In this document: positions 1,113-32,087 of the stretch, piece by piece
How positions within the stretch are numbered: position 1 is the stretch's first letter
How the letters are laid out: each line of letters opens with the position of its first letter
From: an uncultured Planctomycetales bacterium
GTDB lineage: Bacteria; Omnitrophota; Gorgyraeia; Gygaellales; Profunditerraquicolaceae
Reading direction: 5' to 3'
NCBI GenBank assembly: GCA_964603585.1
Contig: CAZRVK010000002.1
Span: 115,513-179,512 of the forward strand
Length of the DNA stretch: 64,000 nt
Notes under the pieces: generated by a model
Told to the model about the DNA's origin: nothing
Seen by the model: only the letters and a program-made list of their open reading frames with translations
The model's database searches: none
Made by a program: the position numbers and the translations under genes

Positions 1113-2573
1113 CTAAATCTGCACCTCGCCTTTTGTAGCTGCAGCCTCCCATTTATTTATCCCGTTCATGACATCCTGAAAGCAAAGTTTTGCCAATATA
1201 TCAAAGTTGCTTTCCATGATCCGGTTGATCCTGCCGGGCTTTGAAAAGAACTCACGCATACACCAAGAACCCAGCCTCCCCAGATCTTCGGTAGTAAGAT
1301 GATCTGTCGGAATGACCGGATGCAAGAAATCCCAGGTGCTAAAATCAACTTTCTTGGTGTCGATCCAGTTTTTCTTCAAAGCAATTTTCCACATCGGGGA
1401 ATTCGGGGCCGGAGTAACATAACCTACCCACAAAACATCCGGATCAACCTGGTCGGTAAACTCAAACCGCTGTTTTATTATCTCCTCGGTATCATAATCA
1501 AAACCCATCATGATATCGGCAACTATGGCAATATCATGCTTTCTTAAAAGCTCAATGGTCTTTTTAATCTGCTCTATAGTTATACCTTTTGCGATCTTCT
1601 TCAACTCCGATTGAGTCGTCACCTCAATACCAAACACCCCCATAAACAGCCCGGTTTCTTTCATCAGCGGCAGCACGGATTCGCAATTAACCCAATCGAT
1701 CGCCCGGCCTAAAGAAACCCATTTGATATCGATCTTCTTTTGTTTCTTTAATTCGCAAAACCTCCTGACACGCGCAGGATCGACGTTAAAGTTATCATCC
1801 TGGATGACAACCACCTTAACCCCGTATTTATTCTGTAACAATTCCATCTCTTCAATTACGCGTTCCGGAGATTTAGCGCGCCATTTCAAGAAATCCGAAG
1901 GGCTCCTTGGGTCAAATTGATCCCACTCATAACAGAAGGTACAGGCCGAGGGACATCCGCGCGATGTCACCATATCCACAAACGGTTTCCAATAAGTATG
2001 CCCTACATATTTATCCATGGGGAATAAATCATATGCCGGTAACGGCAGCTTATCCAAATCTTCCATAAGAGGCTTATGCGGCCCCATCACGATCTGGCCG
2101 TCGATGCGCGAGGTAACTCCTCCCACATCCTTAAAATTCTTCTTCTTGTCGATCGCCTCGATCAAATCCCCAAAAGACTCTTCTTCCCCCATCACCACGA
2201 AATCCACCTCCGGATTCTCTTCCAGGGTATGCACAGGCATAGCAGAATACCATAAACCTCCAAGGATTATTTTTGTTTTAGGCAGTGCATGCTTGATCTT
2301 TACCGCAGCCTCTTTAAAATGCCGTAAAACTCCATATCCGCCATAACCATGCAGCTGCTCTCCCATTACCACGACATCAGGATTAATAGTCTTGACCTTC
2401 TCCACCAATTCATCCATTGGGATCTGATCGGCTTTGCCGTCGATCACTGCAACATCTTCATAGCCGCGCTGGCGGACATACGCTGCCCAATGGGCATAGA
2501 GCTGATTTGGCGAACGATGTATCCCATGTGTTGCCCATGCGCCAACTTTTGGCATAACAAACAAAATCTTCAT
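1113..2573 (-). CDS. B12-binding domain radical SAM protein
   Basis: 486 aa. The N-terminal half looks like a cobalamin-binding Rossmann domain, and the CPSACTFC sequence gives the CxxxCxxC radical SAM cluster motif. Its start overlaps the KS-beta stop by 4 nt. Confidence 0.8.
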   Translation of the reverse strand: MKILFVMPKVGAWATHGIHRSPNQLYAHWAAYVRQRGYEDVAVIDGKADQIPMDELVEKVKTINPDVVVMGEQLHGYGGYGVLRHFKEAAVKIKHALPKTKIILGGLWYSAMPVHTLEENPEVDFVVMGEEESFGDLIEAIDKKKNFKDVGGVTSRIDGQIVMGPHKPLMEDLDKLPLPAYDLFPMDKYVGHTYWKPFVDMVTSRGCPSACTFCYEWDQFDPRSPSDFLKWRAKSPERVIEEMELLQNKYGVKVVVIQDDNFNVDPARVRRFCELKKQKKIDIKWVSLGRAIDWVNCESVLPLMKETGLFMGVFGIEVTTQSELKKIAKGITIEQIKKTIELLRKHDIAIVADIMMGFDYDTEEIIKQRFEFTDQVDPDVLWVGYVTPAPNSPMWKIALKKNWIDTKKVDFSTWDFLHPVIPTDHLTTEDLGRLGSWCMREFFSKPGRINRIMESNFDILAKLCFQDVMNGINKWEAAATKGEVQI

Positions 2574-3817
2574 TTCTTTTCTCCTCTCTCAACCACTAAC
2601 ACCGAGTTAATCCCGCCCCTTCCGCGGGAAATAATTAACGCCTTATTTATTGGGTACTCCCTGGCCTGACCCCGGACATAATTCAGGCCGTTTAGATCCG
2701 GATCATCCAAATTCAAAGTCGGAGGTATCAAATTATGCTCCATGGATAGAAGGGCAATGATCAGATCCAGCGCACCGCTTGCCCCCAGAAGATTGCCAAA
2801 CATGGATTTAGGGCAAGTCGCCGGGACATCTTTGAGTTTAGGACCAAAAACCTTTCTTAAGGCATTTATTTCGCTTTGGTCCCAAATATCCACCGCTAAA
2901 CCATCCAAACTTATATAATCTATTTCCTCTTTGTTGGTTTTAGCGTCAGCCAAAGCCATTTCAATCGCGCGGGCCAATTGCTCGCCGGAGATATCCGGAT
3001 TAATCCGATCCACACCATCACAGGCCATGCCATAACCGGTAATATAGCCTAAAATATTCGCGCTGCGTGCACGTGCTCTTGATTCTGGCTCCATGACAAT
3101 GATCCCGGCTCCTTCGGCGATCACAAAACCATTACGCTTACGGTCAAATGGCCGATAAGCCTGTTCGGGATGTTCATTATCCTTGGAAAGTCCGCCGTAA
3201 GTATTACAGCACAATAAAGCGTATGGAGTAACCGGCGCTTCCATTCCTCCTCCCAGGATCATATTCAATTTCCCTTTAGCCAATGTTTTACGCGCATAGC
3301 CGAGGGCATCCGAAGAACTTGCCCGGTCAGCAACTATGGTCTTAGAAAAACCCTTGATCCCATAATAAATCGAAACCTGACCTTGAGGTGCAGCAGGAAA
3401 CCATGCAGAGGCCATATAGGGAGATACGCCTTCACGGCCCTCGATATACAAATCGCGCAGTTCTGTCTCGGCATAAAGCCAACCGCCTATAGCATTGCCT
3501 AAGAAGATCCCCACCTGGTTGGGATCTTCTTTTTTGATGTCGATCCCGGCATCGGCAAGCGCCAGCTCCGAAGCAATCAAAGCCATATGTGCAAAAGGAT
3601 CCATTTTTTTAAGCAGGCGCTCTGAAAAATTGCTGTATTTTTCCAAATCATCGATTTGCCCTGCAATATGCGAGGGGTATTTTGAAGCATCGAAACGGGT
3701 GATATTCTTTATAAACGACCTTCCGGATTTAATATTGGCCCAAAACTGCCTTCGGCCGATACCTGAAGGAGCCACAACCCCAATTCCTGTCACCGCAACC
3801 TTAGACATTTTATCCAC
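2570..3817 (-). CDS. Ketosynthase-like protein lacking the catalytic Cys/His/His (KS-beta / chain-length-factor-like)
   Basis: 415 aa with a thiolase/KS fold. The active-site Cys position reads DRASSSD, and both catalytic His positions are replaced (LDGLAVD and GNLLGASG). It overlaps the upstream KS gene by 8 nt. Confidence 0.75.
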   Translation of the reverse strand: MDKMSKVAVTGIGVVAPSGIGRRQFWANIKSGRSFIKNITRFDASKYPSHIAGQIDDLEKYSNFSERLLKKMDPFAHMALIASELALADAGIDIKKEDPNQVGIFLGNAIGGWLYAETELRDLYIEGREGVSPYMASAWFPAAPQGQVSIYYGIKGFSKTIVADRASSSDALGYARKTLAKGKLNMILGGGMEAPVTPYALLCCNTYGGLSKDNEHPEQAYRPFDRKRNGFVIAEGAGIIVMEPESRARARSANILGYITGYGMACDGVDRINPDISGEQLARAIEMALADAKTNKEEIDYISLDGLAVDIWDQSEINALRKVFGPKLKDVPATCPKSMFGNLLGASGALDLIIALLSMEHNLIPPTLNLDDPDLNGLNYVRGQAREYPINKALIISRGRGGINSVLVVERGEKK

Positions 3818-5072
3818 CGAACCTTTTTATAATTAATGCTGAATGTATCCCGGAGAAACCGCTCGAGGTTTTAATGATCATATCCACTTTTTTTTCACGT
3901 GCGACATTCGGTACATAATCCAAATCACATAACGGGTCTTTCTCCTCCTGATTGATTGTCGGAGGTAAAACATTCTTGGCAAAAATTTGAGAACAAACGG
4001 TTAATTCTACGGCATTAGCCGCCGCCAAAGGATGGCCGATCATAGACTTTAAGGAACTGGCGGGAAGTTTATACGCATAATCACCCCAAACCATTTTATA
4101 GGCTGCAGTCTCGAAAATATCATTCATTTTTGTAGAAGATCCGTGCGCATTGATATAATCTATATCATTGGGCCTGACTCCGGCGTCTTTGATCGCCAAA
4201 TTGATGCAATTGGCCATTGCCGTCCCATCGGCAGGCAAATCTGTCATATGAAATGCGTTGCAACTGGTGCCAAAACCAATCACCTCTGCGTAAATATGCG
4301 CATTACGTTTTAATGCATGATTTAGTTCTTCAAGAATCAGGATCCCCGCGCCTTCCGATAGAACAAAACCGTTCCGTTTTTTATCAAATGGCCGCGAAGC
4401 CTTCTCCGGGGATTCATTATTCACTCCTAAAACGCTGACTACGTCAAAGGCGCCAAAAGTGATAGGGGTTATCGGGGCCTCTGCCGCGCCACAGATCATG
4501 ACATCCTGCCCTCCATCCTGGATTACCTCCAAACCAAAACCCAAAGAATCGGTACCTGCGGTGCATCCGGTAGAAATAGTATTACAAACCCCTTTTAAAC
4601 CATAGCGGGCATTGACTTCAATGGATGGGGTATTAAACATCGCCGCATCATAAAGATCGGGCCTGACTTTCGCCGGATTGATCGGTTTTTTACCGTCATC
4701 GGTAACTAAAGCAAATTCCTCTTCCATGTATTTGGTCCCGCAAATCGCATTTGCCAGACAAACCCCGATACGTTCTACATCCTCCTTGGAAAAATCTATT
4801 TTACTGTCTTTAACCGCCATATCCGCAGCCACTACCCCGAACTGCACGTAACGGTCCATACGCACCGCTTCATCATGCGTCAGGCCTAATTTAAAGGGAT
4901 CAAAATCGCGGACTTCCGCGGCAATTTTAGTATGAAAAACCGATACATCGAAACTATCGACTAATCTTACCCCGGACTTCCCGCTGGCCATTGCCTGCCA
5001 CACATTATCCTTACCGATACCATTTGGAGAAACTACCCCTAACCCCGTGATCACTACACGCCTTTTATTCAT
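3810..5072 (-). CDS. Beta-ketoacyl-ACP synthase (FabF/KS-alpha-like, catalytically intact)
   Basis: Carries the active-site Cys (ISTGCTAGTDS) and both His motifs (AHGSSTKMND and GHPLAAANAVE). I placed the start at MNKRRVVITGLG, which has an AAAGGA RBS 9 nt upstream. The ORF track's longer N-terminus (to 5117) is probably spurious. Confidence 0.85.
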   Translation of the reverse strand: MNKRRVVITGLGVVSPNGIGKDNVWQAMASGKSGVRLVDSFDVSVFHTKIAAEVRDFDPFKLGLTHDEAVRMDRYVQFGVVAADMAVKDSKIDFSKEDVERIGVCLANAICGTKYMEEEFALVTDDGKKPINPAKVRPDLYDAAMFNTPSIEVNARYGLKGVCNTISTGCTAGTDSLGFGLEVIQDGGQDVMICGAAEAPITPITFGAFDVVSVLGVNNESPEKASRPFDKKRNGFVLSEGAGILILEELNHALKRNAHIYAEVIGFGTSCNAFHMTDLPADGTAMANCINLAIKDAGVRPNDIDYINAHGSSTKMNDIFETAAYKMVWGDYAYKLPASSLKSMIGHPLAAANAVELTVCSQIFAKNVLPPTINQEEKDPLCDLDYVPNVAREKKVDMIIKTSSGFSGIHSALIIKRFGG

Positions 5073-5131
5073 AAATAATCCTTTTTGAACTGTCACTTTA
5101 CAGCTTTTACCACACACTCACCATTAATTAA

Positions 5132-22005: not shown

Positions 22006-23028
22006 TCAATGGGATAAGTCCTGTTTTATCCGTTTTGTGACCAGCTCTGCCAAAACCGCGTGGCCGTATCCGCTTAGGTGAACGGGATCGATCGAAAAAA
22101 CTCCGGGATCAGGATTGATTGACGCAAATTCATGCAAAAGATCAATAGTATGCAGACGCGGATAAAAAGAGGCGATCTGCAGTATTCTTTTGTGGAGATC
22201 ACCATATTTATATTCGTTGAATTTGGCATCAAAGGCAGGCACTATAAAAAGGTAGCTTGTAAATCCGTTTTCCTCCTGAAGCTTATTCAATAATGCAAGC
22301 CCGGCGCCTGGAGGATTGATCTTGATTTTTTCTATAATGCGAAGCGACATCTGGTATAAATAAAACAGGAATTTAGATTTGCTGATAAAATAAGCAATGC
22401 CTCCCCGCTTGGCTGAACCATCTTTAGGGGCAGTATTATTTTCTATCGACTGCCACTTTAAATACCAGGAAATCCCTGAATCAGCAAATTGATCAAAATC
22501 ATTAATGCAAAAAACAATGATCACTATATCCGGCTTATAACGTAATCCCTTGACTCGAAGTGTCTCCACCTCCTTCAATGTATCATAACCTACCACGGCC
22601 ATATTGAAAACCTCGTATTTACGTTTTATAAGATCCTGGTTGAGCAGTCCTTCGATTTTTCTTGGGAAAATATCTTTAACATCGCTTATCGTTTCTCCGA
22701 CGCTAACAGAATCACCCAAAATAATTATTCTTACAATGCCGGCAGGTTTAGCCTCTCTAAATTCATAATCCCGGAATCCCGATGAGTTTGTAAAGAATCC
22801 CCGGTACTCCGGATACCGGTCTTGTCCTTTCATTATATAGTTTTTCTTATATTCAAAGCTTAAAACCGGGTTAGCGGAACGTACAAAGAAATCACCTGTA
22901 ACCGGGACCCTAAGCATTTTTCGATAAGGATTAAAGATGCGGATCAGTATCTCCCCCAGCAAAAGGCTGAAAATAACAATAAAAACGGTAAAAATAGTTT
23001 TATGGAAAAGGCTGCTCATATTTTGCAA
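22006..23028 (-). CDS. SGNH/GDSL hydrolase-family protein, N-terminal membrane anchor
   Basis: A TM helix followed by GDS (ILGDSVSVG), an IND block and DPVHLSGYGH (DxxH). Confidence 0.6.
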   Translation of the reverse strand: MQNMSSLFHKTIFTVFIVIFSLLLGEILIRIFNPYRKMLRVPVTGDFFVRSANPVLSFEYKKNYIMKGQDRYPEYRGFFTNSSGFRDYEFREAKPAGIVRIIILGDSVSVGETISDVKDIFPRKIEGLLNQDLIKRKYEVFNMAVVGYDTLKEVETLRVKGLRYKPDIVIIVFCINDFDQFADSGISWYLKWQSIENNTAPKDGSAKRGGIAYFISKSKFLFYLYQMSLRIIEKIKINPPGAGLALLNKLQEENGFTSYLFIVPAFDAKFNEYKYGDLHKRILQIASFYPRLHTIDLLHEFASINPDPGVFSIDPVHLSGYGHAVLAELVTKRIKQDLSH

Positions 23029-23097
23029 TAATTATTAATGCCGTACCGACTTACGTTGACCGCAGTCGCGGTGAAAAAAATAAATTCTTTTGTTATT

Positions 23098-23655
23098 CTA
23101 TAGGAACCGGGGTGTCCGGATAGAAGTGGTGTATTCTGCGCTTCCCTGCCAGTTCGTAAATGCTCCGCTTCCGGTGAAAGCGACCAGGTTAACCGCAACC
23201 CGCCGGATATCACTGGCAATAAGAGGTACAGCTTCGCTGGCATCATAATAGAGAAACAGCGCCCCGTTTCTTCCGGTAGTAATCTTAATGCCGGAGGATC
23301 CCTGGTAATAAAGGAATGCTGGATCGATAACCGCGTTTATGGTCCTGGTGAGTTTATTGGTCCCGGTATCCAAGGTGATCACCACAGTTTTTGAGTTCTG
23401 GTCGGTGAAGGTGATGGAATTGGCGGAGAATGCCGTGATATTCTTGCAGAAACGCAGCCCTCCGGCAAGGTTATCCCCATCAACGATCTTATCCAGCGCA
23501 TCCTGGGCCAGCATATCCATATTCAGGGAATTCGGCAAATAAACCATCCCCTGTATACTGGAAACTAAGATCGCCGAGGTAACCGAAACGATTATCCCGA
23601 TAATCGTGATTATAACTACCAGCTCGATCAGGCTAAAACCTTTGTTATTTTTCAT
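23098..23655 (-). CDS. Prepilin-type N-terminal cleavage/methylation domain protein (pseudopilin)
   Basis: MKNNKGFSLIELVVIITIIGII is a class III signal with G|F and E+5. Confidence 0.7.
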   Translation of the reverse strand: MKNNKGFSLIELVVIITIIGIIVSVTSAILVSSIQGMVYLPNSLNMDMLAQDALDKIVDGDNLAGGLRFCKNITAFSANSITFTDQNSKTVVITLDTGTNKLTRTINAVIDPAFLYYQGSSGIKITTGRNGALFLYYDASEAVPLIASDIRRVAVNLVAFTGSGAFTNWQGSAEYTTSIRTPRFL

Positions 23656-24053
23656 AACCCTATGGTTGTATTCTTGGCTATATAGGTACGCAGGGTAGCC
23701 AGATTATCCGTCGAGCCATCCTTTCTGACCTGGACCAATACTTGTTTAAGGCTCTCTGCACTAAGATCATCGCCAAAAATATAAGAAACTGTCCTGACCA
23801 CAGTAAAAGGATAGTTATTGTAACTATTCGTAGTGAGGCTGGTAATATTAGCATAGGCAAGATTATTAACCACTTCCATCTCCATCCGGGCTAAATTCAT
23901 AGCCGTAGTATATTCTTTTGACCTGGAAGAAGAGATGGCAAGCTCAATGACAAACCTCCCTACTGTAGCCGCAATAACCCCCAAAATGACCACTGTCATA
24001 ATGATCTCGATAAAAGTGAATGAACGTTTTCCTTTTATAGGCTTAAGGAACAC
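23652..24053 (-). CDS. Prepilin-type N-terminal cleavage/methylation domain protein (pseudopilin)
   Basis: KGKRSFTFIEIIMTVVILGVIAA prepilin motif. It overlaps the downstream gene by 4 nt. Confidence 0.7.
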   Translation of the reverse strand: MFLKPIKGKRSFTFIEIIMTVVILGVIAATVGRFVIELAISSSRSKEYTTAMNLARMEMEVVNNLAYANITSLTTNSYNNYPFTVVRTVSYIFGDDLSAESLKQVLVQVRKDGSTDNLATLRTYIAKNTTIGL

Positions 24054-24825
24054 TGGCAGATATCTCCTGGTAAGCGGATATATTTCCGGTTAAGGTATTA
24101 TAAGTTGCCTGGATGGTCTTATATAATCCTGATCCCGCAATCCTTCCGGTTGAAATAATGGTAATATCATCTATGGGGGTAGTACAGACACTCCCTGGGG
24201 TTGGGCGGACAGCGCAAATAGTCGTCGATGAGCCATCGGTCATCACACATTGCAGAGTTATGGTCGCGGGGTTCATATTCCCTGACCAGCGAATACGGGT
24301 AAGCGGAAGCGTGGTGCTGGCGGGAATTGCCGTATCAGTTATATTGACACTCCCTCCTGGAGGCGCAATCGACCCTGAAAAAACCGTTACGCCGTTGATC
24401 AGGACTTGCGTCAATGAACGCATATTACTCCAAATGACATTCAGCGAAGCAATGGTGATCGCAGCCAGAGAGGTGTTCTGCAGAGTAATGCCTAAGAGGT
24501 CTCTCTGGCCGATACCGCCAGTCGAGGCAGAGGTAGCGTTTATTACTAAATAAGCAGCGGCTTTGGCTTTACTGGTAAAACTAAAAAAGTTATCCCCGTC
24601 TATATTAACTGTAGTGGGCAAAACAAAGGTTGCCCCGCTGTTTCTATATTGATATATTGCATAATATATCCCTGCCTGCGCATTATAACGGGCGCGTAAC
24701 AGCCTTTGCCAGGTATTAAAACCTTGAAAGCGGTTGGCAATGAACTGGACACTGCCTAAAATAGCAATTCCGACAAAGAGGATCAATACAATGACCGCAA
24801 TCAGGGCAAATCCATTCTTGCGCAT
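24043..24825 (-). CDS. Pilin-like minor pseudopilin (PilX-like N-terminus)
   Basis: MRKNGFALIAVIVLILFVGIAILG hydrophobic N-terminus and a Thr/Ser-rich body. Confidence 0.5.
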   Translation of the reverse strand: MRKNGFALIAVIVLILFVGIAILGSVQFIANRFQGFNTWQRLLRARYNAQAGIYYAIYQYRNSGATFVLPTTVNIDGDNFFSFTSKAKAAAYLVINATSASTGGIGQRDLLGITLQNTSLAAITIASLNVIWSNMRSLTQVLINGVTVFSGSIAPPGGSVNITDTAIPASTTLPLTRIRWSGNMNPATITLQCVMTDGSSTTICAVRPTPGSVCTTPIDDITIISTGRIAGSGLYKTIQATYNTLTGNISAYQEISASVP

Positions 24826-24979
24826 AATTTACTTTATCATAAATAAAGGCCTCGGACAAAGGAAAAAACAAAACTCCTTTTGCAATTTTTTGTAATACTC
24901 TTTTTGTCTTACATGTGAATTGCCTGATATGGCTCTTTATGGTTTTATTCCTACCGGAAACGAGAATTTAATCTGCTCT

Positions 24980-26020
24980 TTATCCCGAGTCCGGAACTCG
25001 GCCTTGTATGATTGCATTAAATAATTCGCCGGCTATTGCACGATGCCCTGAAGGATTTGGGTGGCAAAGATCCTGCTTGCCTGTAATTGGATGCCGGCCA
25101 TCTTTAAGCCAAAGATCCTGTTGATGCTTGAAATTATGCCTGTAAGAATCTATCATATTCACAAAAACAAACCGATTTTTGTCGGCTATTTCTCTGATTA
25201 TATTCATCTCTTTATCATTAGAATCTGTTTCCTCATAATCCAAATACGGGTTAAATAATATAACCACCCTTGAAGAATGTGAATCGGCATATTGCTTCAA
25301 CTCTTTAAACCCATCAATTACAGCTTGATAGGAAGATTTTTTAGCATCGGTCAAGGAATCCAGCAAATAAATCCTTTGCAATATAAATCTAACCATATCT
25401 GATTGCGAAGCTAACGCCCTTATTATTTTAAAACGCCATAAAAAGTTAAACCCTGGGTAAGGAGTCTTATCCAAGTCAGGAATATTCAAGAAAAACGGCA
25501 GCACCTGCGGCAATACTGAAATATCATTTATGCAATAACTCAAGACTATTATATCCGGAGCATATTTATCGGCCTTTACCTTTAATTGTTCGATCTCGTT
25601 ATTTATATTATATCCGTGCACGGAGAAATTAAGCACCTCATACTTCAAGCCTTCTTTATTGGTTACAGACCATTGATTGAGTTTATCTTCCAATACTTTT
25701 GCGAAAGTCTGATTCATCTCTACGCCGCTTCCAAAAGCAATCGAATCCCCTAATACAGCGATACGTAAAGTATCGGCGGGTTTTAAAAGGGCATATTCTC
25801 TATCCCGCATCCCATCCGAATTTATGCCCGGAGTGGAGGGATTTAGCTCATAAACCAGTTTTTGATTATTAGAGAGAATTACCTGGCTGTAGCTATTAAA
25901 GTATCTACTTCGATTTGGGCACAGTTGAAATATCCTGAAATTGACTTCAAGCATGAGTAAAACTAATACTATAGATAGTATAGTCAGCAATATCTTTGCG
26001 AAAAAACTCTTCATCTTCAC
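24980..26020 (-). CDS. SGNH/GDSL hydrolase-family protein, N-terminal membrane anchor
   Basis: A TM helix followed by IAVLGDSIAFGSG, SYCINDI and DGRHPITG...HPNPSGH. Confidence 0.6.
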   Translation of the reverse strand: MKMKSFFAKILLTILSIVLVLLMLEVNFRIFQLCPNRSRYFNSYSQVILSNNQKLVYELNPSTPGINSDGMRDREYALLKPADTLRIAVLGDSIAFGSGVEMNQTFAKVLEDKLNQWSVTNKEGLKYEVLNFSVHGYNINNEIEQLKVKADKYAPDIIVLSYCINDISVLPQVLPFFLNIPDLDKTPYPGFNFLWRFKIIRALASQSDMVRFILQRIYLLDSLTDAKKSSYQAVIDGFKELKQYADSHSSRVVILFNPYLDYEETDSNDKEMNIIREIADKNRFVFVNMIDSYRHNFKHQQDLWLKDGRHPITGKQDLCHPNPSGHRAIAGELFNAIIQGRVPDSG

Positions 26021-26176
26021 CTCCGATGTTCTATTTTATCATAATCGCTTAGAAATTGTAAGTCCTATGTAGATACTTTTACGCATGTAACTGTTGCGCA
26101 ATAACTTATACCATTAACGTTCCACACTAATCATTATTCTGATTTCTTTTAAGAATAATAAACTCATCCCCTTATC

Positions 26177-26205
26177 TTGAATTCCGTTAAAGGATATGCT
26201 ATATT
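26177..26205 (+). promoter_or_regulatory. Sigma-70-like promoter (TTGAAT-17-TATATT) for the riboswitch-controlled transcript
   Basis: A -35 at 26177..26182 and a -10 at 26200..26205 separated by 17 nt, about 8 nt upstream of the riboswitch start. Confidence 0.45.
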
Positions 26206-26212
26206 TCCTTAT

Positions 26213-26307
26213 AGATGTTACGATAAAGGCAAACCCGGTGAAAACCGGGGGCGCAAAACTTATAGAGCCTAAAGCCGAAAGCGGCTATGGTAGTCAGGTG
26301 CCGAAAC
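26213..26307 (+). promoter_or_regulatory. Cyclic-di-GMP-I (GEMM) riboswitch aptamer
   Basis: Reads AAAGGCAAACC, then CCCGGUGAAAACCGGG (a P2 hairpin with a GAAA tetraloop), then GGCGCAAAAC (matching GACGCAAAGC), then AGCCUAAAGCC, then a GCCGAAAGCGGC hairpin. This order matches the GEMM-I consensus as I recall it from the V. cholerae Vc2 aptamer. Confidence 0.65.
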
Positions 26308-26325
26308 ATAAACAGATAAATATGA

Positions 26326-26363
26326 ACCCATAGGCACTTTAAGACTATGGGTTTTTTGTTTTA
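26326..26363 (+). terminator. Intrinsic terminator (riboswitch expression platform)
   Basis: ACCCATAG, an 11-nt loop, CTATGGGT, then TTTTTTGTTTT. It lies between the aptamer and the RBS/ATG at 26401. Confidence 0.65.
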
Positions 26364-26400
26364 TAAAAACATAGGAAACGGGAGAAAAAGGAGGTGGGAT

Positions 26401-26733
26401 ATGTTTACAAAGGTAACGGCTGTTATTATGATAATGTTGTTATGTTTTGCTGCGGGGGCATATGCCCAAGAGGAAGGTGAGCATAATGCTATCACCAAAC
26501 TCGGCCAGGGGGTAATCAACGGAACCACTTTTTGGCTGGAATTTCCCAAACAGATATATAACACCACAAAGGAAGACGATATCCTGGTCGGATTAACCTA
26601 TGGCTTGGTCAAGGGCGTAGCATACAGCGTATTGCGGCTGGCCTCGGGTGTATATGATATCACCACGATGCCTATTCCTCCCTATGACCGGGTATTGCTC
26701 GAACCAAAGTTTGTATTTGAAGGCTGGGAATAA
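26401..26733 (+). CDS. Small secreted protein (signal peptide), function unknown
   Basis: I placed the start at MFTKV because AAGGAGGTG sits 6 nt upstream. The longer ORF-track start lies inside the terminator hairpin. There is a signal peptide ending in AYAQ. Confidence 0.6.
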   Translation: MFTKVTAVIMIMLLCFAAGAYAQEEGEHNAITKLGQGVINGTTFWLEFPKQIYNTTKEDDILVGLTYGLVKGVAYSVLRLASGVYDITTMPIPPYDRVLLEPKFVFEGWE

Positions 26734-26796
26734 GATCATTCCGGGAGGAAATGATCAAAAACTAAAGGAGAGGGTCGTTCGGCTGACCCTCTCCTT

Positions 26797-27816
26797 TTAA
26801 TTTGCAAGCAATTTCTCGATCTCCGGGATGAGGCTTGTATTATTTTGGCTGAAACACAGCTCTTTTGCCTTTACAAAATAATCATTTGCCTTCTCCCCCT
26901 GACCAACCGATAAATAAACTAAACCGATATTATATTTGATCTTGGGGTTTTCTTTATCCAGCCATTCAGCCTGTAAAAGTGCAGCCAAGGCCAAGTCATA
27001 TTGTTTAAGCTGGCCGTATGCGCTACCCAAATTTGTATATGCGTTGATCAAAGACGGATCAAGCTCAACTGCCCTGGTGAAACAAGAAACCGCCGAAGAA
27101 TAATCTTTTTCAGAAGCATAGATAACCCCTAACCGGTAATATGCCTGCGCGTATCCAGGATGCGCGGCAATCAGCTGATTAAAGAGATCGATCGCCTTAG
27201 AGACTTCATTTCTCTTAAATGCCTCCGATGCCTCCTGCAACAACCCCTCCATAGAAACTTCCGGGGTCAACTCCTCTGGCAAGAGCGCAATATCTTCTGA
27301 GCCATCCTTAATCTCCTGATCGATCCTGGCCAAGGCGTTTTTTGCCGGCACAAATCCCGGGTCAAGCTTCAAAGCAGCGGTAAAGTATTCTTCGGAGTTT
27401 TTATAATCGCCGTTTTTAAAATAAGTCAACCCCAAACTATACAACACGATTTTCTTGCCGGGGTCATAATAGCCGATCAGGCGCACAGCGTCTTTAAGGA
27501 GGTTTTGTGCCTCTACAGCCTCCCCTGTTTCCAGGTGCAAAGCAGCCAGATTGATATAAGCCTGGGAATTATCCGGGCATAATTCTATGGCATCCCGAAA
27601 GCATTCCTGGGCTTGCACATATTTCTTTTCTTCAAAATAAACCAGGCCCTGATTAAGAGTTGAGATGTATTCTGAATTTGCCGATGCATTGTCCAGCGTG
27701 ATGACCTTTACTCCATAAGGGAACCCCGGGATTTCTTCTGTGGCCAAGGATATGCCTAAAAAACAGGAAAGGGAGATTAGTATGGCGCAGAAAATGCGCA
27801 AGGATAGAGTAATCAT
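26797..27816 (-). CDS. Tetratricopeptide repeat protein, secreted
   Basis: A signal peptide and repeated TPR motifs (AxxYxxLGxxY...). Confidence 0.75.
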   Translation of the reverse strand: MITLSLRIFCAILISLSCFLGISLATEEIPGFPYGVKVITLDNASANSEYISTLNQGLVYFEEKKYVQAQECFRDAIELCPDNSQAYINLAALHLETGEAVEAQNLLKDAVRLIGYYDPGKKIVLYSLGLTYFKNGDYKNSEEYFTAALKLDPGFVPAKNALARIDQEIKDGSEDIALLPEELTPEVSMEGLLQEASEAFKRNEVSKAIDLFNQLIAAHPGYAQAYYRLGVIYASEKDYSSAVSCFTRAVELDPSLINAYTNLGSAYGQLKQYDLALAALLQAEWLDKENPKIKYNIGLVYLSVGQGEKANDYFVKAKELCFSQNNTSLIPEIEKLLAN

Positions 27817-27881
27817 GATTTTTATTATACAATGTCAGTCTGAAAATCTCAACAAGAAAAATTCCTTTATTATTATCATGA

Positions 27882-29495
27882 TCAAAGGATCTTCTTCTCA
27901 TAGACTGAAAATATCCCTATTGATCTAACCTTGATGAAATTATCAAAAATATATGCCTTAAGCTGCGGGAAGTCCCCCAACCGCTTATCAGTAGTCAAAA
28001 AAGACTTTTCCTCCAAAACCACAATCGCAACTTGTTTTTTCTTAAGATCATCTACGACCCATTCATCAAGTTTTGCATCGTACCGCTTAGAATAACTAAA
28101 ACCCTTGTCAAACCATAAAACCGGTTGGGGCGAAGGGAAATTAAGCAGGCCATAAAATATCGTGAAATCCGGAAAAATAAAAAATGGCTTGTTCTGGGCC
28201 TCAAGATATTCATAAACCGCCGCGATGTCAGACTCCTGGACATCGTAACCTAACACCTCCGTAGGCTGGCCCCATTTCAGGACTTCCAACTTCTTAATAA
28301 AAGATCTCTTGGGAAATTTGGATCCGGAGAAAACATCCTGCACTTTGCGGGTTAAAGCAGTTTCAACACCGTAAACGATGACATATATGCTCGATAAACC
28401 GATCAAAACGGCCAGCACCCAATTTAGGACAACTCGTTTCCTCGGACTCTTTTTGGGGAGGATAAATCCGCTGACGGCGGCTAAAATGATCCCCAGGAAA
28501 GGAAAACCATTCTCTTTTTGATTCATGGCAGTACGCATAAAAAGATACTGGAAAAATACGGTATAGATACACAAAAACGAGGCCAATAACCTGGGCAGAG
28601 AAAACTCCTTGCCCTGGATAAGATTAAACAAATAATGAAAAAATACGTATACCGCGACAACCAAAGAAAACCAAAATAGATATTGAATAAATAATAACCC
28701 GGCGCTATCAAAAAATGCGGCATGGAATGGATTATAAATAATCCGGTTCATGCCAACTTCCCAGGGAATTCGAAGGAAATATTCAAGAAAAACCGCAGGG
28801 CGGGAATAAATCACTAACCAGAGGCAAAATACCGAAAGGCTAAGGAAAAAACCCAGAAAAAACCACATTGACCTGGAAACAACCATTTTCAGGCTAAACT
28901 CACTGCCCAAAATAATCAACAGGAAATACAGGGGGAAAATAAATGCCCCGGCATTTTGCTTACTGATCAATGATAAAAGGGCACAAACCCCGGAAGCCAA
29001 AAGAAGTGATCTTGCCGCGGCAACAGACAAGCGATAAAGCAAAACCGGCAAAACAAAGGTTATACCTGCCAAAGAAAAGAAGAATGCGGTTTGTTCCGCA
29101 TTTGTCGTGCCGTAAATCGAGTAAAACCATACTGCGGTGATTATCCCGCAAAGATAAGCCAGCCAGCTTCTTCCCGGAAAAAGGATTTTGATTATCACTA
29201 TCCCGCAAAGAGTCGCCAGAAGATTAACGAATGAAGCGGCAAATATATAGGCAAAATAATTTACCCCTAATAGTTTAAAGAACCCTGCCTGCAGCCAGAA
29301 CGCCATCGGGCCAAAAGGCATAAAGAAGTCTTTAAAGGGCACCTGGCCGCAAAGGATACGCCATGCGCCATCAAAGGTCATCGACTGGTCAAAAGCAAAA
29401 AACCCCCGGCTGCCGGAAGCAAAGCATAAAAAAAATCCTGCGGAAATGATCCCCCCGATAATCAGTAATTCCGCGATCTTATAAAAAAGCTTCAC
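27882..29495 (-). CDS. Polytopic membrane protein, putative GT-C-type glycosyltransferase
   Basis: At least 11 TM helices, an FDQSMTFDG acidic motif in the first loop and a ~150-aa soluble C-terminal domain. Confidence 0.45.
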   Translation of the reverse strand: MKLFYKIAELLIIGGIISAGFFLCFASGSRGFFAFDQSMTFDGAWRILCGQVPFKDFFMPFGPMAFWLQAGFFKLLGVNYFAYIFAASFVNLLATLCGIVIIKILFPGRSWLAYLCGIITAVWFYSIYGTTNAEQTAFFFSLAGITFVLPVLLYRLSVAAARSLLLASGVCALLSLISKQNAGAFIFPLYFLLIILGSEFSLKMVVSRSMWFFLGFFLSLSVFCLWLVIYSRPAVFLEYFLRIPWEVGMNRIIYNPFHAAFFDSAGLLFIQYLFWFSLVVAVYVFFHYLFNLIQGKEFSLPRLLASFLCIYTVFFQYLFMRTAMNQKENGFPFLGIILAAVSGFILPKKSPRKRVVLNWVLAVLIGLSSIYVIVYGVETALTRKVQDVFSGSKFPKRSFIKKLEVLKWGQPTEVLGYDVQESDIAAVYEYLEAQNKPFFIFPDFTIFYGLLNFPSPQPVLWFDKGFSYSKRYDAKLDEWVVDDLKKKQVAIVVLEEKSFLTTDKRLGDFPQLKAYIFDNFIKVRSIGIFSVYEKKIL

Positions 29496-29518
29496 TTTCT
29501 ATTACCCACAGGTTAACA

Positions 29519-30988
29519 TTAATTTCCCAGGCGGTATGGCCTAAGAAGCCTTAAAAACTCCGGGCTGACCGCATAACCGATTTTTGCTGCCAGATCAGCA
29601 TGCCTGATCGCCAATTCATATTCTTGCCGTGAATAATAAACTACGGCCAGATTATTATGCGCCAGGAAATAATCCGGCGCCAGCTCAATGGCTTTTTGAT
29701 ACATTTGGATAGCCTCTTCTGTCCTGCCTAATTCGGCATAAACAATCCCCAGGTTATAATAAACCCTCGGGGTGTTCGGTTTAAATTTTATGGTCCTCTC
29801 GTAAAAAGTCAGATCATCCCGCCAATAAAGATTCTGCCTGACAGTAAGAAATGAATACCATCCTAATAACGCGATCACCAAAATCATACCGGCCGATTTG
29901 CGGTTTTTACCCCGATAAAAACAACAGACCCCATATGCGCATAACAAAAAAAATCCCATCGCCGGGAAATAAAGCCAATGCTCCATCATATACGATGAAT
30001 TAATGCGATAAATATTAGTGACAGGCAAAATAGCGATAAAAAACCAGCCAATAGCGAATGATACGACCGGAGCGGCATTTATTTGCCTGAAGAAAAAAAA
30101 CAAAGATGCCAGTAATATCATAAACCCGCTGATCACCTTTGGATCGGCATAATGAAAGATCCTGTCTCCATACTCCATATGCAGATTTAACGGCATAAGC
30201 AAAAGACCGAGGTAATTTGTTAAAGCGGCAAAGAAAATCGGGATGCGGGACAGGATATTCCCTCCTCCCGGAATATGAGGAAGAAAATGATTAAGGCTAA
30301 AAAATCTTAGTCCCAGATAAAGCAGGATCAACGCTACAATTGCCAGCATTTTAAGCAAGGCCAGCCGTTTACGAAAGACGTAATGGTAAAGCAAAACCAA
30401 AAGGGGGAAGATTAAACTGCTTTCCTTGGATAAAAGCGCTAAGCCATAACTAAATAAAATCAACAAATACGCCTTGGGTTTTTCAAAATCCATATATTTA
30501 ACATAAAACCCCAAAGAAGCCAGCAAAAAAAACGCCGCCAGAGAATCCTGGCGGCCAGAGATATAAGAGACGGCTTCTGTATTAATCGGATGCACCACAA
30601 ATAATAAACTGCTGACTAAAGAAAGTAATTTATCCCGGAAAATGATATTGAGGAGCCAGTACAGGCTTAACCCCACCAAAACATGCAGCAGGATATTGGT
30701 AAAATGATACCCGCCGGGATTCAAACCCCAAAGAGAGTAATTTATTAAATAGGTCAGCATTTGCAGTGGCCGGTATAAATCATAATCCCTGCCTCCGGCA
30801 ATACCAACATCTTCAGTAAAGATCCTGCCGATATTAAGGAAACTCTCCAGGCGGGGGTTATTTTCTATATAGATATGGTCATCCCAGATAAACTGGCCCG
30901 GTAAAGAGTTAAAATAAACAAGGAACCCTAAGATGATTATGACAAGCGGCGCGAGTTTTTCTGTCCTGGAAAGAAAGTTTAACTGCAT
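29519..30988 (-). CDS. Multi-TM + C-terminal TPR protein (TMTC/PMT_2-like putative GT-C glycosyltransferase)
   Basis: FIWDDHIYIENN motif in the first loop, about 11 TM helices and C-terminal TPR repeats (YYNLGIVYAELGRTEEAI...). Confidence 0.55.
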   Translation of the reverse strand: MQLNFLSRTEKLAPLVIIILGFLVYFNSLPGQFIWDDHIYIENNPRLESFLNIGRIFTEDVGIAGGRDYDLYRPLQMLTYLINYSLWGLNPGGYHFTNILLHVLVGLSLYWLLNIIFRDKLLSLVSSLLFVVHPINTEAVSYISGRQDSLAAFFLLASLGFYVKYMDFEKPKAYLLILFSYGLALLSKESSLIFPLLVLLYHYVFRKRLALLKMLAIVALILLYLGLRFFSLNHFLPHIPGGGNILSRIPIFFAALTNYLGLLLMPLNLHMEYGDRIFHYADPKVISGFMILLASLFFFFRQINAAPVVSFAIGWFFIAILPVTNIYRINSSYMMEHWLYFPAMGFFLLCAYGVCCFYRGKNRKSAGMILVIALLGWYSFLTVRQNLYWRDDLTFYERTIKFKPNTPRVYYNLGIVYAELGRTEEAIQMYQKAIELAPDYFLAHNNLAVVYYSRQEYELAIRHADLAAKIGYAVSPEFLRLLRPYRLGN

Positions 30989-31031
30989 ATTATAGTGATG
31001 AGATAACTGGCAGTTTCGAAAGGCCTGGTAT

Positions 31032-32087
31032 TTATTTATTCAACACTTCGATAATAATGCTTTGGCTAGAGGTATTGCCTAAATTATCCTGAACCGTTAA
31101 AGTTGCCGTAAAATGCCTGGGTTCAAATGAAGCACTGTAATAAGTATTTACCGGGTTGGCTTTCGTAGAAACGTCCCCGTCCCCAAAATCCCAGGAATAA
31201 GAAACTATCCGGGCATGGGGGCTAAAAGAACCCTTGGCGGAAAATTGTACCCGAAGAGGAGAAAATCCTTTTACCGGTCTGGCGTTGACTACCGCCGTGA
31301 TCATTCCGGAATCCGGATCCCGCTCACGAGGCACAGCAACCACAACAGCCTGCGGTGTCTCCTTAAGCTTCGGTTTTGTTTCCTCGGCAATATCCGGAGC
31401 AATTGCCAAAGCTGGCTCCAGATGCGATCCGGCAGCATTGGTTTTTTCTATCCCCAATGGTTGTGGCTGTACGACTGTTCCTGCTGGCGCAACTGCCGCT
31501 TCCTTAATAACGGCTAAACCCGGAGTAAACTGTTCCTTGGCCAAGTCGTTTTTGACATAGTTAGCCATCTTTTCTTTTAATTTTGCGACACGCGCAAACT
31601 CCAGAGCATCTTTTTGTTCTTCGATCTTGAGGATCTTCTCTCTGTATTTTGGATCATGGTCATAGCGGTAATCTGAAACCCCAATAAAAGGGAGACGGAA
31701 TACTCCAGTCACCAGCTTAAACATCATGATCGGGTAATCTGCAAATCCCATCTTGAACCGGTTCTCGATCGCCCCCATCTTCTTATAAAAATCTTCGATT
31801 ATCCTCCGGCGCCGGCTGAATCTTTCTTTTGCCAATGCCAAATCCTCTGGCACAGTATTATTCTCGCCTACAGTATATTCAACGATCGTGTAATTATCAC
31901 GGGAAACAACATACCCTTTATCATACGGTACAGTCCCCTTCTGGAATTTATAAGTGGCACATCCGGATAATAATACCATTAAGATAAGAACACTCCCCCA
32001 CTTCAAACAGCGGAGTGATTTAAAAAAATCCCGGTCCTGCGCTTCAGAGAAAATGGCGGCCTTCCCAAGAGATATTATTCCAAGCAT
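31032..32087 (-). CDS. PKD domain-containing lipoprotein
   Basis: Lipobox LLSGC and a C-terminal PKD motif (WDFGDG...). Confidence 0.65.
   Translation of the reverse strand: MLGIISLGKAAIFSEAQDRDFFKSLRCLKWGSVLILMVLLSGCATYKFQKGTVPYDKGYVVSRDNYTIVEYTVGENNTVPEDLALAKERFSRRRRIIEDFYKKMGAIENRFKMGFADYPIMMFKLVTGVFRLPFIGVSDYRYDHDPKYREKILKIEEQKDALEFARVAKLKEKMANYVKNDLAKEQFTPGLAVIKEAAVAPAGTVVQPQPLGIEKTNAAGSHLEPALAIAPDIAEETKPKLKETPQAVVVAVPRERDPDSGMITAVVNARPVKGFSPLRVQFSAKGSFSPHARIVSYSWDFGDGDVSTKANPVNTYYSASFEPRHFTATLTVQDNLGNTSSQSIIIEVLNK

Follow-up and report, generated by a model that had tools for sequence, protein, structure and literature searches.

Judged from its sequence and from the changes accumulated in its relatives, the leader of one small secreted-protein gene in an uncultivated Omnitrophota-type bacterium is a genuine class I cyclic di-GMP (c-di-GMP) riboswitch, equipped with its own promoter and its own intrinsic terminator. 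The element lies within a 64-kb stretch of a metagenome-assembled bacterial chromosome, contig CAZRVK010000002.1 (positions 115,513 to 179,512 of the forward strand; hereafter the window, whose own numbering is used throughout). The gene that it precedes encodes a 110-amino-acid (aa) protein of the TIGR04073 family. The identity of the aptamer and its control of the gene through transcription termination can, taken together, be regarded as close to certain. A sequence-only reading had recognized the riboswitch correctly from the letters alone, as any routine Rfam-based annotation would have done too.

Identity and structure of the aptamer

Searched against Rfam 15 at gathering thresholds, the whole window contains a single match, to RF01051 (c-di-GMP-I). 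With 77.5 bits (E 1.7e-13), the match exceeds the gathering score of 35, and its alignment spans model positions 1–87 of 87 and is not truncated. This is the cmsearch check that the sequence-only reading had proposed. Its proposed control, the class II family RF01786, gave no match at gathering in the 64-kb window, nor did any other Rfam family. A permissive rescan of 26150–26420 brought nothing else near any family threshold, and RF01051 is the family reported when clan competition is applied. The hallmark motifs of GEMM-I are all present where they had been placed: AGGCAAACC at 26227–35, CCCGGUGAAAACCGGG with its GAAA tetraloop at 26234–49, GGCGCAAAAC at 26250–59, AGCCUAAAGCC at 26266–76 and GCCGAAAGCGGC at 26274–85.

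When the Rfam structure is mapped onto this segment, 19 of 21 pairs are canonical or wobble; of the other two, one is A-G and one is missing through a deletion. The P2 hairpin, CCCGGU-GAAA-ACCGGG, stands as it had been described. The second hairpin, GCCG-AAAG-CGGC, had been credited with a GNRA cap and turns out to carry AAAG instead (or, read differently, the hexaloop GAAAGC). The CCUAAA…UAUGG of P3 resembles the 11-nucleotide (nt) tetraloop receptor, with an A-U in place of the G-U usual in that consensus. The aptamer occupies the first ~95 nt of the transcribed leader. P1 is short: in a fold with the aptamer enforced, its 5′ strand finds its partners in AACAU (26305–09) and CG (26302–03), and the helix comprises only CG:CG and AUGUU:AACAU. 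It is barely detectable in one related leader (L017), and in another (L004) its CG:CG pair is changed to GG:CC. Both halves of the outer P1 helix occur twice in the window, AUGUU at 26215–19 and again at the start codon (26401–05), and AACAU at 26305–09 and again at 26368–72, 29 nt before the ATG.

Covariation supports the P2 and P3 helices. Across six aligned leaders, 87% of cells are paired, compared with 30–51% when the 3′ partners are slid out of register, and nine pairs show changes in both partners (P2 has four of these, upper P3 three). The covariation score was reached by none of 500 shuffles. For P2 and P3, the pairing that the sequence-only reading had made its touchstone is borne out by compensatory changes in relatives. 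The leader as a whole folds with a z of −4.4 relative to shuffles.

The expected ligand is c-di-GMP. Carried over through the Rfam alignment, and on what we take to be the correspondence with the numbering of the Vc2 riboswitch, the ligand-contact equivalents are all conserved in the window: G26228 (G20), C26301 (C92) and A26255 (A47), the last presumably the contact that intercalates with the ligand. The window and all six aligned leaders have a G at position 20, which points to c-di-GMP and away from cyclic GMP-AMP (cGAMP). In Vc2, one guanine of c-di-GMP is recognized by G20 and the other pairs with C92, while cGAMP riboswitches have an A at position 20; wild-type Vc2, bearing G20, binds cGAMP only at 10 μM, as against picomolar binding of c-di-GMP (PMC6140456). 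Aptamers of GEMM-I type with altered specificity do exist, and very few positions separate them from c-di-GMP binders (PMC6140456). A different ligand here, be it 3′3′-cGAMP or another dinucleotide, is nevertheless very improbable given the G at position 20, the retention of the C92 and A47 equivalents, and the preference for RF01051 within its clan.

Promoter, terminator and gene

The aptamer is embedded in a compact transcription unit (Table 1). The proposed promoter is of the sigma-70 type and spans 26177–26205, from which transcription would start at about 26211–26215, at the 5′ strand of P1. The TTGAAT-17-TATATT arrangement named in the sequence-only reading was recovered, and its −10 proved to be an extended one, but the match taken alone does not rise above chance, as this AT-rich stretch holds 5 such sites where 3.8 are expected. 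The pair TTGnnn plus TGnTATAnT does recur in divergent relatives at the same distance to the aptamer, the −10 there reading TGATATACT, TGTTATAAT or TGGTATAAT.

The terminator begins 18 nt 3′ of the aptamer and has a predicted hairpin energy of −13 to −15 kcal/mol. Its U-run, UUUUUUGUUUU, extends over 26352–62 and is interrupted by a G at 26358. A pattern scanner for terminators missed it because the 11-nt loop exceeds the scanner's limit of 8 nt. The ATG at 26401 follows 38 nt past the last U of the U-run, where 37 had been counted earlier. In the read-through transcript the ribosome-binding site (RBS) is predicted to be 83% unpaired, and the transcribed leader contains no anti-Shine–Dalgarno motif. 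On the far side of the gene, a 13-base-pair (bp) stem at 26764–97 is followed on the plus strand by UUUUAAUUU and is probably a bidirectional terminator, shared with a convergent gene. With this shared hairpin downstream of the open reading frame (ORF), the riboswitch unit would be monocistronic. Since a terminator thus stands between the aptamer and the unpaired RBS of a single gene, gating of termination by c-di-GMP, as the sequence-only reading had proposed, is the natural interpretation and is supported by this arrangement.

Table 1. Features of the riboswitch unit and of its surroundings, in window coordinates
Feature	Position	Strand	Basis or description
−35 hexamer TTGAAT	26177..26182	+	pattern scan, 9/12 matches, 17-nt spacer
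Extended −10 TGcTATATT (TATATT 26200–05)	26197..26205	+	pattern scan
c-di-GMP-I (GEMM-I) aptamer	26218..26305	+	RF01051 match and covariation
P1 5′ strand: AUGUU 26215–19 and CG 26221–22	26215..26222	+	fold with aptamer enforced
P2	26234–39/26244–49	+	GAAA loop; CCCGGU-GAAA-ACCGGG
P3	26257–26299	+	tetraloop-receptor motif CCUAAA…UAUGG
Candidate antiterminator strand (A): P3 3′ strand and receptor half, G-G-CUAUGG-U	26283..26291	+	complementarity
Intrinsic terminator	26324..26362	+	10-bp stem GAACCCAUAG 26324–33 / CUAUGGGUUU 26345–54, 11-nt loop
RBS AAGGAGGUG	26388..26396	+	sequence; 6 nt between GGAGG and ATG
Coding sequence, 110 aa and stop (111 codons), TIGR04073-family protein	26401..26733	+	NCBIfam hidden Markov model
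13-bp hairpin between convergent TIGR04073 and TPR genes	26764..26797		minus-strand terminator scan
Two SGNH/GDSL hydrolases	22006–23028, 24980–26020		family matches
Three pilin-like ORFs	23098–24825		prepilin N-terminal methylation motif in two; no family match for the 260-aa ORF
TPR-repeat protein gene, convergent	26797–27816	−	directly downstream of TIGR04073 gene
Two PMT_2-like membrane glycosyltransferases	27882–30988
PKD-domain protein	31032–32087

Related leaders and their distribution

Loci of homologs were sampled from GTDB genomes (10), JGI metagenomes (47) and exact-protein look-ups (8 distinct). An RF01051 match lies ~100–210 nt upstream of the homolog gene in 14 distinct leaders besides that of the window (L004, L005, L007, L014, L015, L016, L017, L022, L061, L063, L064, L065/66, L067 and L071/72). 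These share the layout of the window and come mostly from Omnitrophota-type metagenome-assembled genomes (MAGs) and metagenomes. All 14 belong to the closest homologs, at ~43–59% identity to the query protein, and the aptamer was found in none of ~40 more distant homologs, Geobacter-type loci included; the association of riboswitch and gene is therefore lineage-specific. Several close homologs (L006, L018, L020, L023, L068 and L069) likewise gave no aptamer.

The terminator, which the sequence-only reading had seen in the window alone as a strong stem and U-run, stands downstream of the aptamer in each of the 15 leaders, that of the window included. Its stem comes in two types, CC(C)AUAG/CUAUGG(G) in 11 leaders including the window (group A), and CCCUAUUCC/GGAAUAGGG in the other four (group B). 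The two differ by compensatory changes, which indicates that the hairpin is under selection. From the 3′ end of the aptamer to the core of the 5′ arm the distance ranges from 7 to 30 nt, and the terminator never overlaps the aptamer.

Four of the related aptamers are enlarged by insertions (L007 1776–1901, L016 727–858, L015 957–1108 and L067 347–490). These range from ~38 nt in L007 to ~65 nt in L015 and form one or two extra hairpins. They are lodged between the conserved GGGAC/GGGGC that follows P2 and the junction-closing GCAAA, beside the A47 equivalent. Such aptamers score 35–46 bits with Rfam, and the one in L015 is missed by default filters. Two group B leaders show a peculiarity of another kind: in L005 (1885–1905) and L007 (1888–1908), the GGGUU at the base of the P3 3′ strand can pair with a copy of AACC(C/U) in the spacer (GGGUU-GCCG-AACCC). 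This local hairpin, a second alternative fold, would place the C92 equivalent in its loop.

At two loci the aptamer has been lost while the promoter, a terminator-like hairpin and the RBS are kept (L006 1790–1935, to be compared with L022 40–300; and L018 ~1100–1200). L006 retains both P1 strands as well as a GAAGUAG segment complementary to its own terminator 5′ arm, and in L018 the U-run has decayed. On this comparison, the pair forms a natural series of riboswitch loss.

Probable direction and proposed mechanism of switching

The sequence-only reading left the direction of the switch unstated. An OFF switch of the Cd1 type, in which c-di-GMP promotes termination, is moderately favored by the comparison of leaders. 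In Cd1, the terminator coexists with the aptamer, and a transient antiterminator, which competes with both, uses a 3′ strand of the aptamer (PMC9262584). Modeled on that precedent, the leader would begin at the sigma-70-type promoter and fold in turn its aptamer and then its terminator, ahead of an open RBS and a single gene. At low c-di-GMP, the 5′ arm of the terminator (T) would, once transcribed, pair with the aptamer segment A (Table 1). This antiterminator would keep T from its terminator partner strand H, allowing RNA polymerase to pass and the protein to be synthesized. With c-di-GMP bound, the aptamer would be locked and A held within P3 and the docked tetraloop receptor; T would then pair with H, and transcription would stop in the U-run. 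Since aptamer and terminator do not overlap, both can form together. Indeed, the minimum-energy fold of the window and its aptamer-enforced fold each contain the two side by side.

The strand assignment draws on complementarity. In the window, CUAUGG (26285–90) is complementary to CCAUAG (26328–33) within the CCCAUAG of T, and a pairing of 6–9 contiguous bp between A and T is available in 8 of the 11 group A leaders. The core of T, CC(C)AUAG, does not vary in 10 of those 11, while their P2 stems diverge freely. In the four group B leaders, a different T, CCCUAUUCC, matches a different A segment, GGAGUAAGG. Summed over the 15 leaders, the energy of the T:A duplex is −116.5 kcal/mol, as against −63.4 ± 7.4 for shuffled T (z = −7.2), a score that overstates the evidence, given that the A segment was picked after the pattern had been seen and that the leaders are phylogenetically related. 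In 9 of the 15, no other aptamer window pairs with T as well, and in L004, L005 and L016 the lowest-energy structure predicted after the emergence of T is the antiterminator.

Several further observations count against an OFF switch built in this way. In the window itself, the antiterminator has 6 bp only (−7 kcal/mol; p = 0.08 taken alone), and the intact aptamer is, by ViennaRNA, more stable by ~6 kcal/mol. Little complementarity between A and T is left in L015 and L017. The folding search for an antiterminator that the sequence-only reading had suggested thus gave a divided answer, in that the complementarity was found while two further analyses came out null: in Boltzmann sampling, shuffled T arms invade the aptamer just as often (0.41 vs 0.41), and the flanks of the group A helix show no leader-specific covariation (21 pairs vs 23 ± 2 when permuted). 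The physiology also points the other way. The usual effect of c-di-GMP is to induce matrix, surface and biofilm functions. In Methylophaga biofilm, riboswitch-associated PEP-CTERM transcripts were mostly higher (PMC12530212).

The converse arrangement keeps the riboswitch and its terminator and reverses the sign, so that c-di-GMP would prevent termination and induce the secreted protein. Such an ON switch would suit the usual biology of the second messenger better; the name of the regulated family ties it to the exosortase/PEP-CTERM system, and the antiterminator statistics are, as seen, mixed. Class I ON switches have precedent, as in pilM (GEMM-Ib), where the mechanism requires that the aptamer and terminator folds be mutually exclusive (PMC9262584). 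In all 15 leaders, however, the terminator is a self-contained hairpin set apart from the aptamer, which leaves the bound aptamer nothing with which to block it. No relay element was found in the spacers, and the gap to the T core shrinks to only 7–8 nt in L017 and L063. The conserved complementarity, moreover, joins T to an aptamer strand, which is the arrangement of an OFF switch. Induction by c-di-GMP is accordingly judged rather unlikely. Control at the level of translation, by occlusion of the RBS or start codon with the hairpin reduced to a leaky attenuator or an RNA-stability element, fares far worse and is considered quite improbable. It could appeal to the aptamer-less L006 and L018, which hold on to promoter and hairpin, and to a pairing seen in the read-through fold of the window between AAACAUA (26367–73) and the start-codon region UAUGUUU (26399–405). 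That pairing is a weak A-U helix with no counterpart in L022, the sole relative checked (by eye), and the predicted openness of the RBS and the lack of an anti-Shine–Dalgarno motif in the leader speak against occlusion. A canonical stem and U-run accompany every aptamer, and the decay of the U-run in L018 is as expected if termination matters only when coupled to an aptamer. That aptamer and terminator chiefly constitute a stand-alone c-di-GMP-binding small RNA or sponge, with the gene expressed independently, is scarcely credible. Termination would release a structured, stable RNA of ~145 nt, and riboswitch-derived small RNAs are known for other riboswitch classes. Against this, no second promoter-like site lies between terminator and gene, the sole other plus-strand match near the gene starting at 26404, inside the coding sequence. 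Aptamer, terminator, RBS and gene also stay linked in 15 leaders across several genomic neighborhoods.

Within the preferred OFF switch, the specific proposal is that in this Omnitrophota-type lineage c-di-GMP directly represses the secreted TIGR04073 protein by means of an antiterminator competing for the tetraloop-receptor strand, rather than for the P1/binding-pocket strand used by Cd1. Taken with all its parts, this proposal is put forward tentatively and is on balance doubtful.

Other partners for the switch were considered and set aside. For switching based on P1, no consistent pairing of its strands with the T or H strands was found. An antiterminator between GGUGCC (26297–302) and GGCACU (26333–38) reaches no further than the top pair of the terminator, allows for a pseudoknot and has no counterpart in L014. 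Pairing of the aptamer segment AAAACUUAUAG (26255–65) with the 3′ arm of the terminator, over 11 bp with G-U included, lacks conservation in relatives and is implausible on kinetic grounds. The helix between the A-rich 5′ flank of the aptamer and the U-run, part of the minimum-energy fold, is a generic match of A-tract to U-tract and would form too late for termination. Finally, the P3 5′ strand (26259–71) can pair with 26331–43 over 11 bp at nearly equal energy (−34.8 vs −35.7 kcal/mol). This fold is not seen in other leaders and was rejected because it depends on the unusually long terminator loop of the window.

The regulated protein and its neighborhood

The product of the regulated gene matches NCBIfam TIGR04073 (exosortase system-associated) with 75.1 bits against a cut-off of 50, over profile positions 3–71 of 75; Pfam offers no family match for it. 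It bears a Sec-type signal peptide, MFTKVTAVIMIMLLCFAAGAYA/QEE, probably cleaved after AYA22, in agreement with the small secreted protein of the sequence-only reading, whose length of 111 aa needs trimming to 110, the 111th codon being the stop. Homologs align from M1. The family comprises 935 representatives at 50% identity (E <= 1e-3), and close relatives of the product, in MAGs of Candidatus Omnitrophica/Omnitrophota, are named as TIGR04073 family by NCBI and JGI. An AlphaFold2 model built from 59 sequences is confident, with a mean predicted local distance difference test score of 89, and consists of the signal helix followed by three helices. Used as a query against solved structures (PDB), this model found no match at E below 1. 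A genome scan with the single 110-aa protein as query returned no match. Outside the window, a protein of 6326 aa (P0029) is matched by the same query in 30 separate stretches and looks like a giant tandem-repeat version of the small TIGR04073 domain. Full-text literature searches turned up no paper mentioning TIGR04073, and none joining "c-di-GMP riboswitch" with exosortase.

The unit sits in a neighborhood of cell-envelope genes (22006–32087; Table 1). Among ~35 window ORFs scanned, out to ~50.2 kb, there is no member of the exosortase, GGDEF or EAL families, and for PrsT the ORF scans gave a sub-threshold TPR-repeat match only. The convergent TPR gene adjoins the TIGR04073 homolog in most related loci (including L063, L064, L065, L068 and L069), while in L071 a TPR gene lies upstream and divergent instead. 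This recurrence suggests that the TPR and TIGR04073 genes are a functional pair. At some distance, on the minus strand (1113–5117), a B12-binding radical SAM protein resembling BchE/HpnJ, every match of which falls below curated cut-offs, adjoins two tandem FabF-like beta-ketoacyl-ACP synthases; the group may be an unusual lipid-modification cluster.

Significance

What is mildly new here is confined to the TIGR04073 link in Omnitrophota-type bacteria, the suggestion of a receptor-strand antiterminator, and the variant and decayed leaders. The leader would put TIGR04073, an uncharacterized secreted family, directly under the control of c-di-GMP in uncultivated bacteria of Omnitrophota type, and that control, if real, would provide the first regulatory handle on the family. 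The 15 related leaders yield a testable model of an OFF switch in which the 5′ arm of the terminator competes for the tetraloop-receptor strand. Were this competition to hold, the switch would read out the tertiary docking of its aptamer. The insertion variants and the loss of the aptamer in relatives are material for the study of riboswitch evolution and decay. They may amount to a natural evolutionary series that runs from intact aptamers through those with 40–65-nt insertions to aptamer-less leaders that keep the terminator.

Comparison with known systems

Vc2, in the leader of Vibrio cholerae tfoY, is the structural reference for GEMM-I, and the window shares with it the GAAA tetraloop of P2, the receptor in P3 and the equivalents of G20, A47 and C92. 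The downstream genes are unrelated, and Vc2 is not known to have a comparable promoter-proximal module with an intrinsic terminator. The GEMM-Ib riboswitches of Geobacter, pilM and Gs1761, likewise have a homologous aptamer fold and act on termination. They differ in carrying an A at position 20, in sensing 3′3′-cGAMP as ON switches, and in having a terminator that overlaps the aptamer (PMC9262584, PMC6140456). None of the Geobacter-type TIGR04073 loci examined has a match to RF01051.

For the regulated gene, the nearest parallel comes from Methylophaga nitratireducenticrescens GP59, in which c-di-GMP riboswitches were reported before PEP-CTERM/exosortase-linked genes (PMC12530212). In both cases, class I c-di-GMP riboswitches stand ahead of small secreted proteins associated with the exosortase/PEP-CTERM system. 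In GP59, a gammaproteobacterium, the genes code for PEP-CTERM substrates instead of TIGR04073 proteins, and the study describes no mechanism. For the mode of switching, the closest counterpart is Cd1, the transcriptional OFF switch in the leader of the Clostridioides difficile flagellar operon. The regulated gene and the phylum differ, and the spacer from aptamer to T measures ~47 nt in Cd1 and 18 nt in the window. The antiterminator of Cd1 invades the 3′ strand of the binding pocket (C87/G86), whereas the candidate in the window comprises the upper P3 3′ strand and the receptor half. The two are alike in aptamer family, in a separate downstream terminator able to coexist with the aptamer, and, if the candidate is correct, in drafting a 3′ strand of the aptamer as the partner of the antiterminator.

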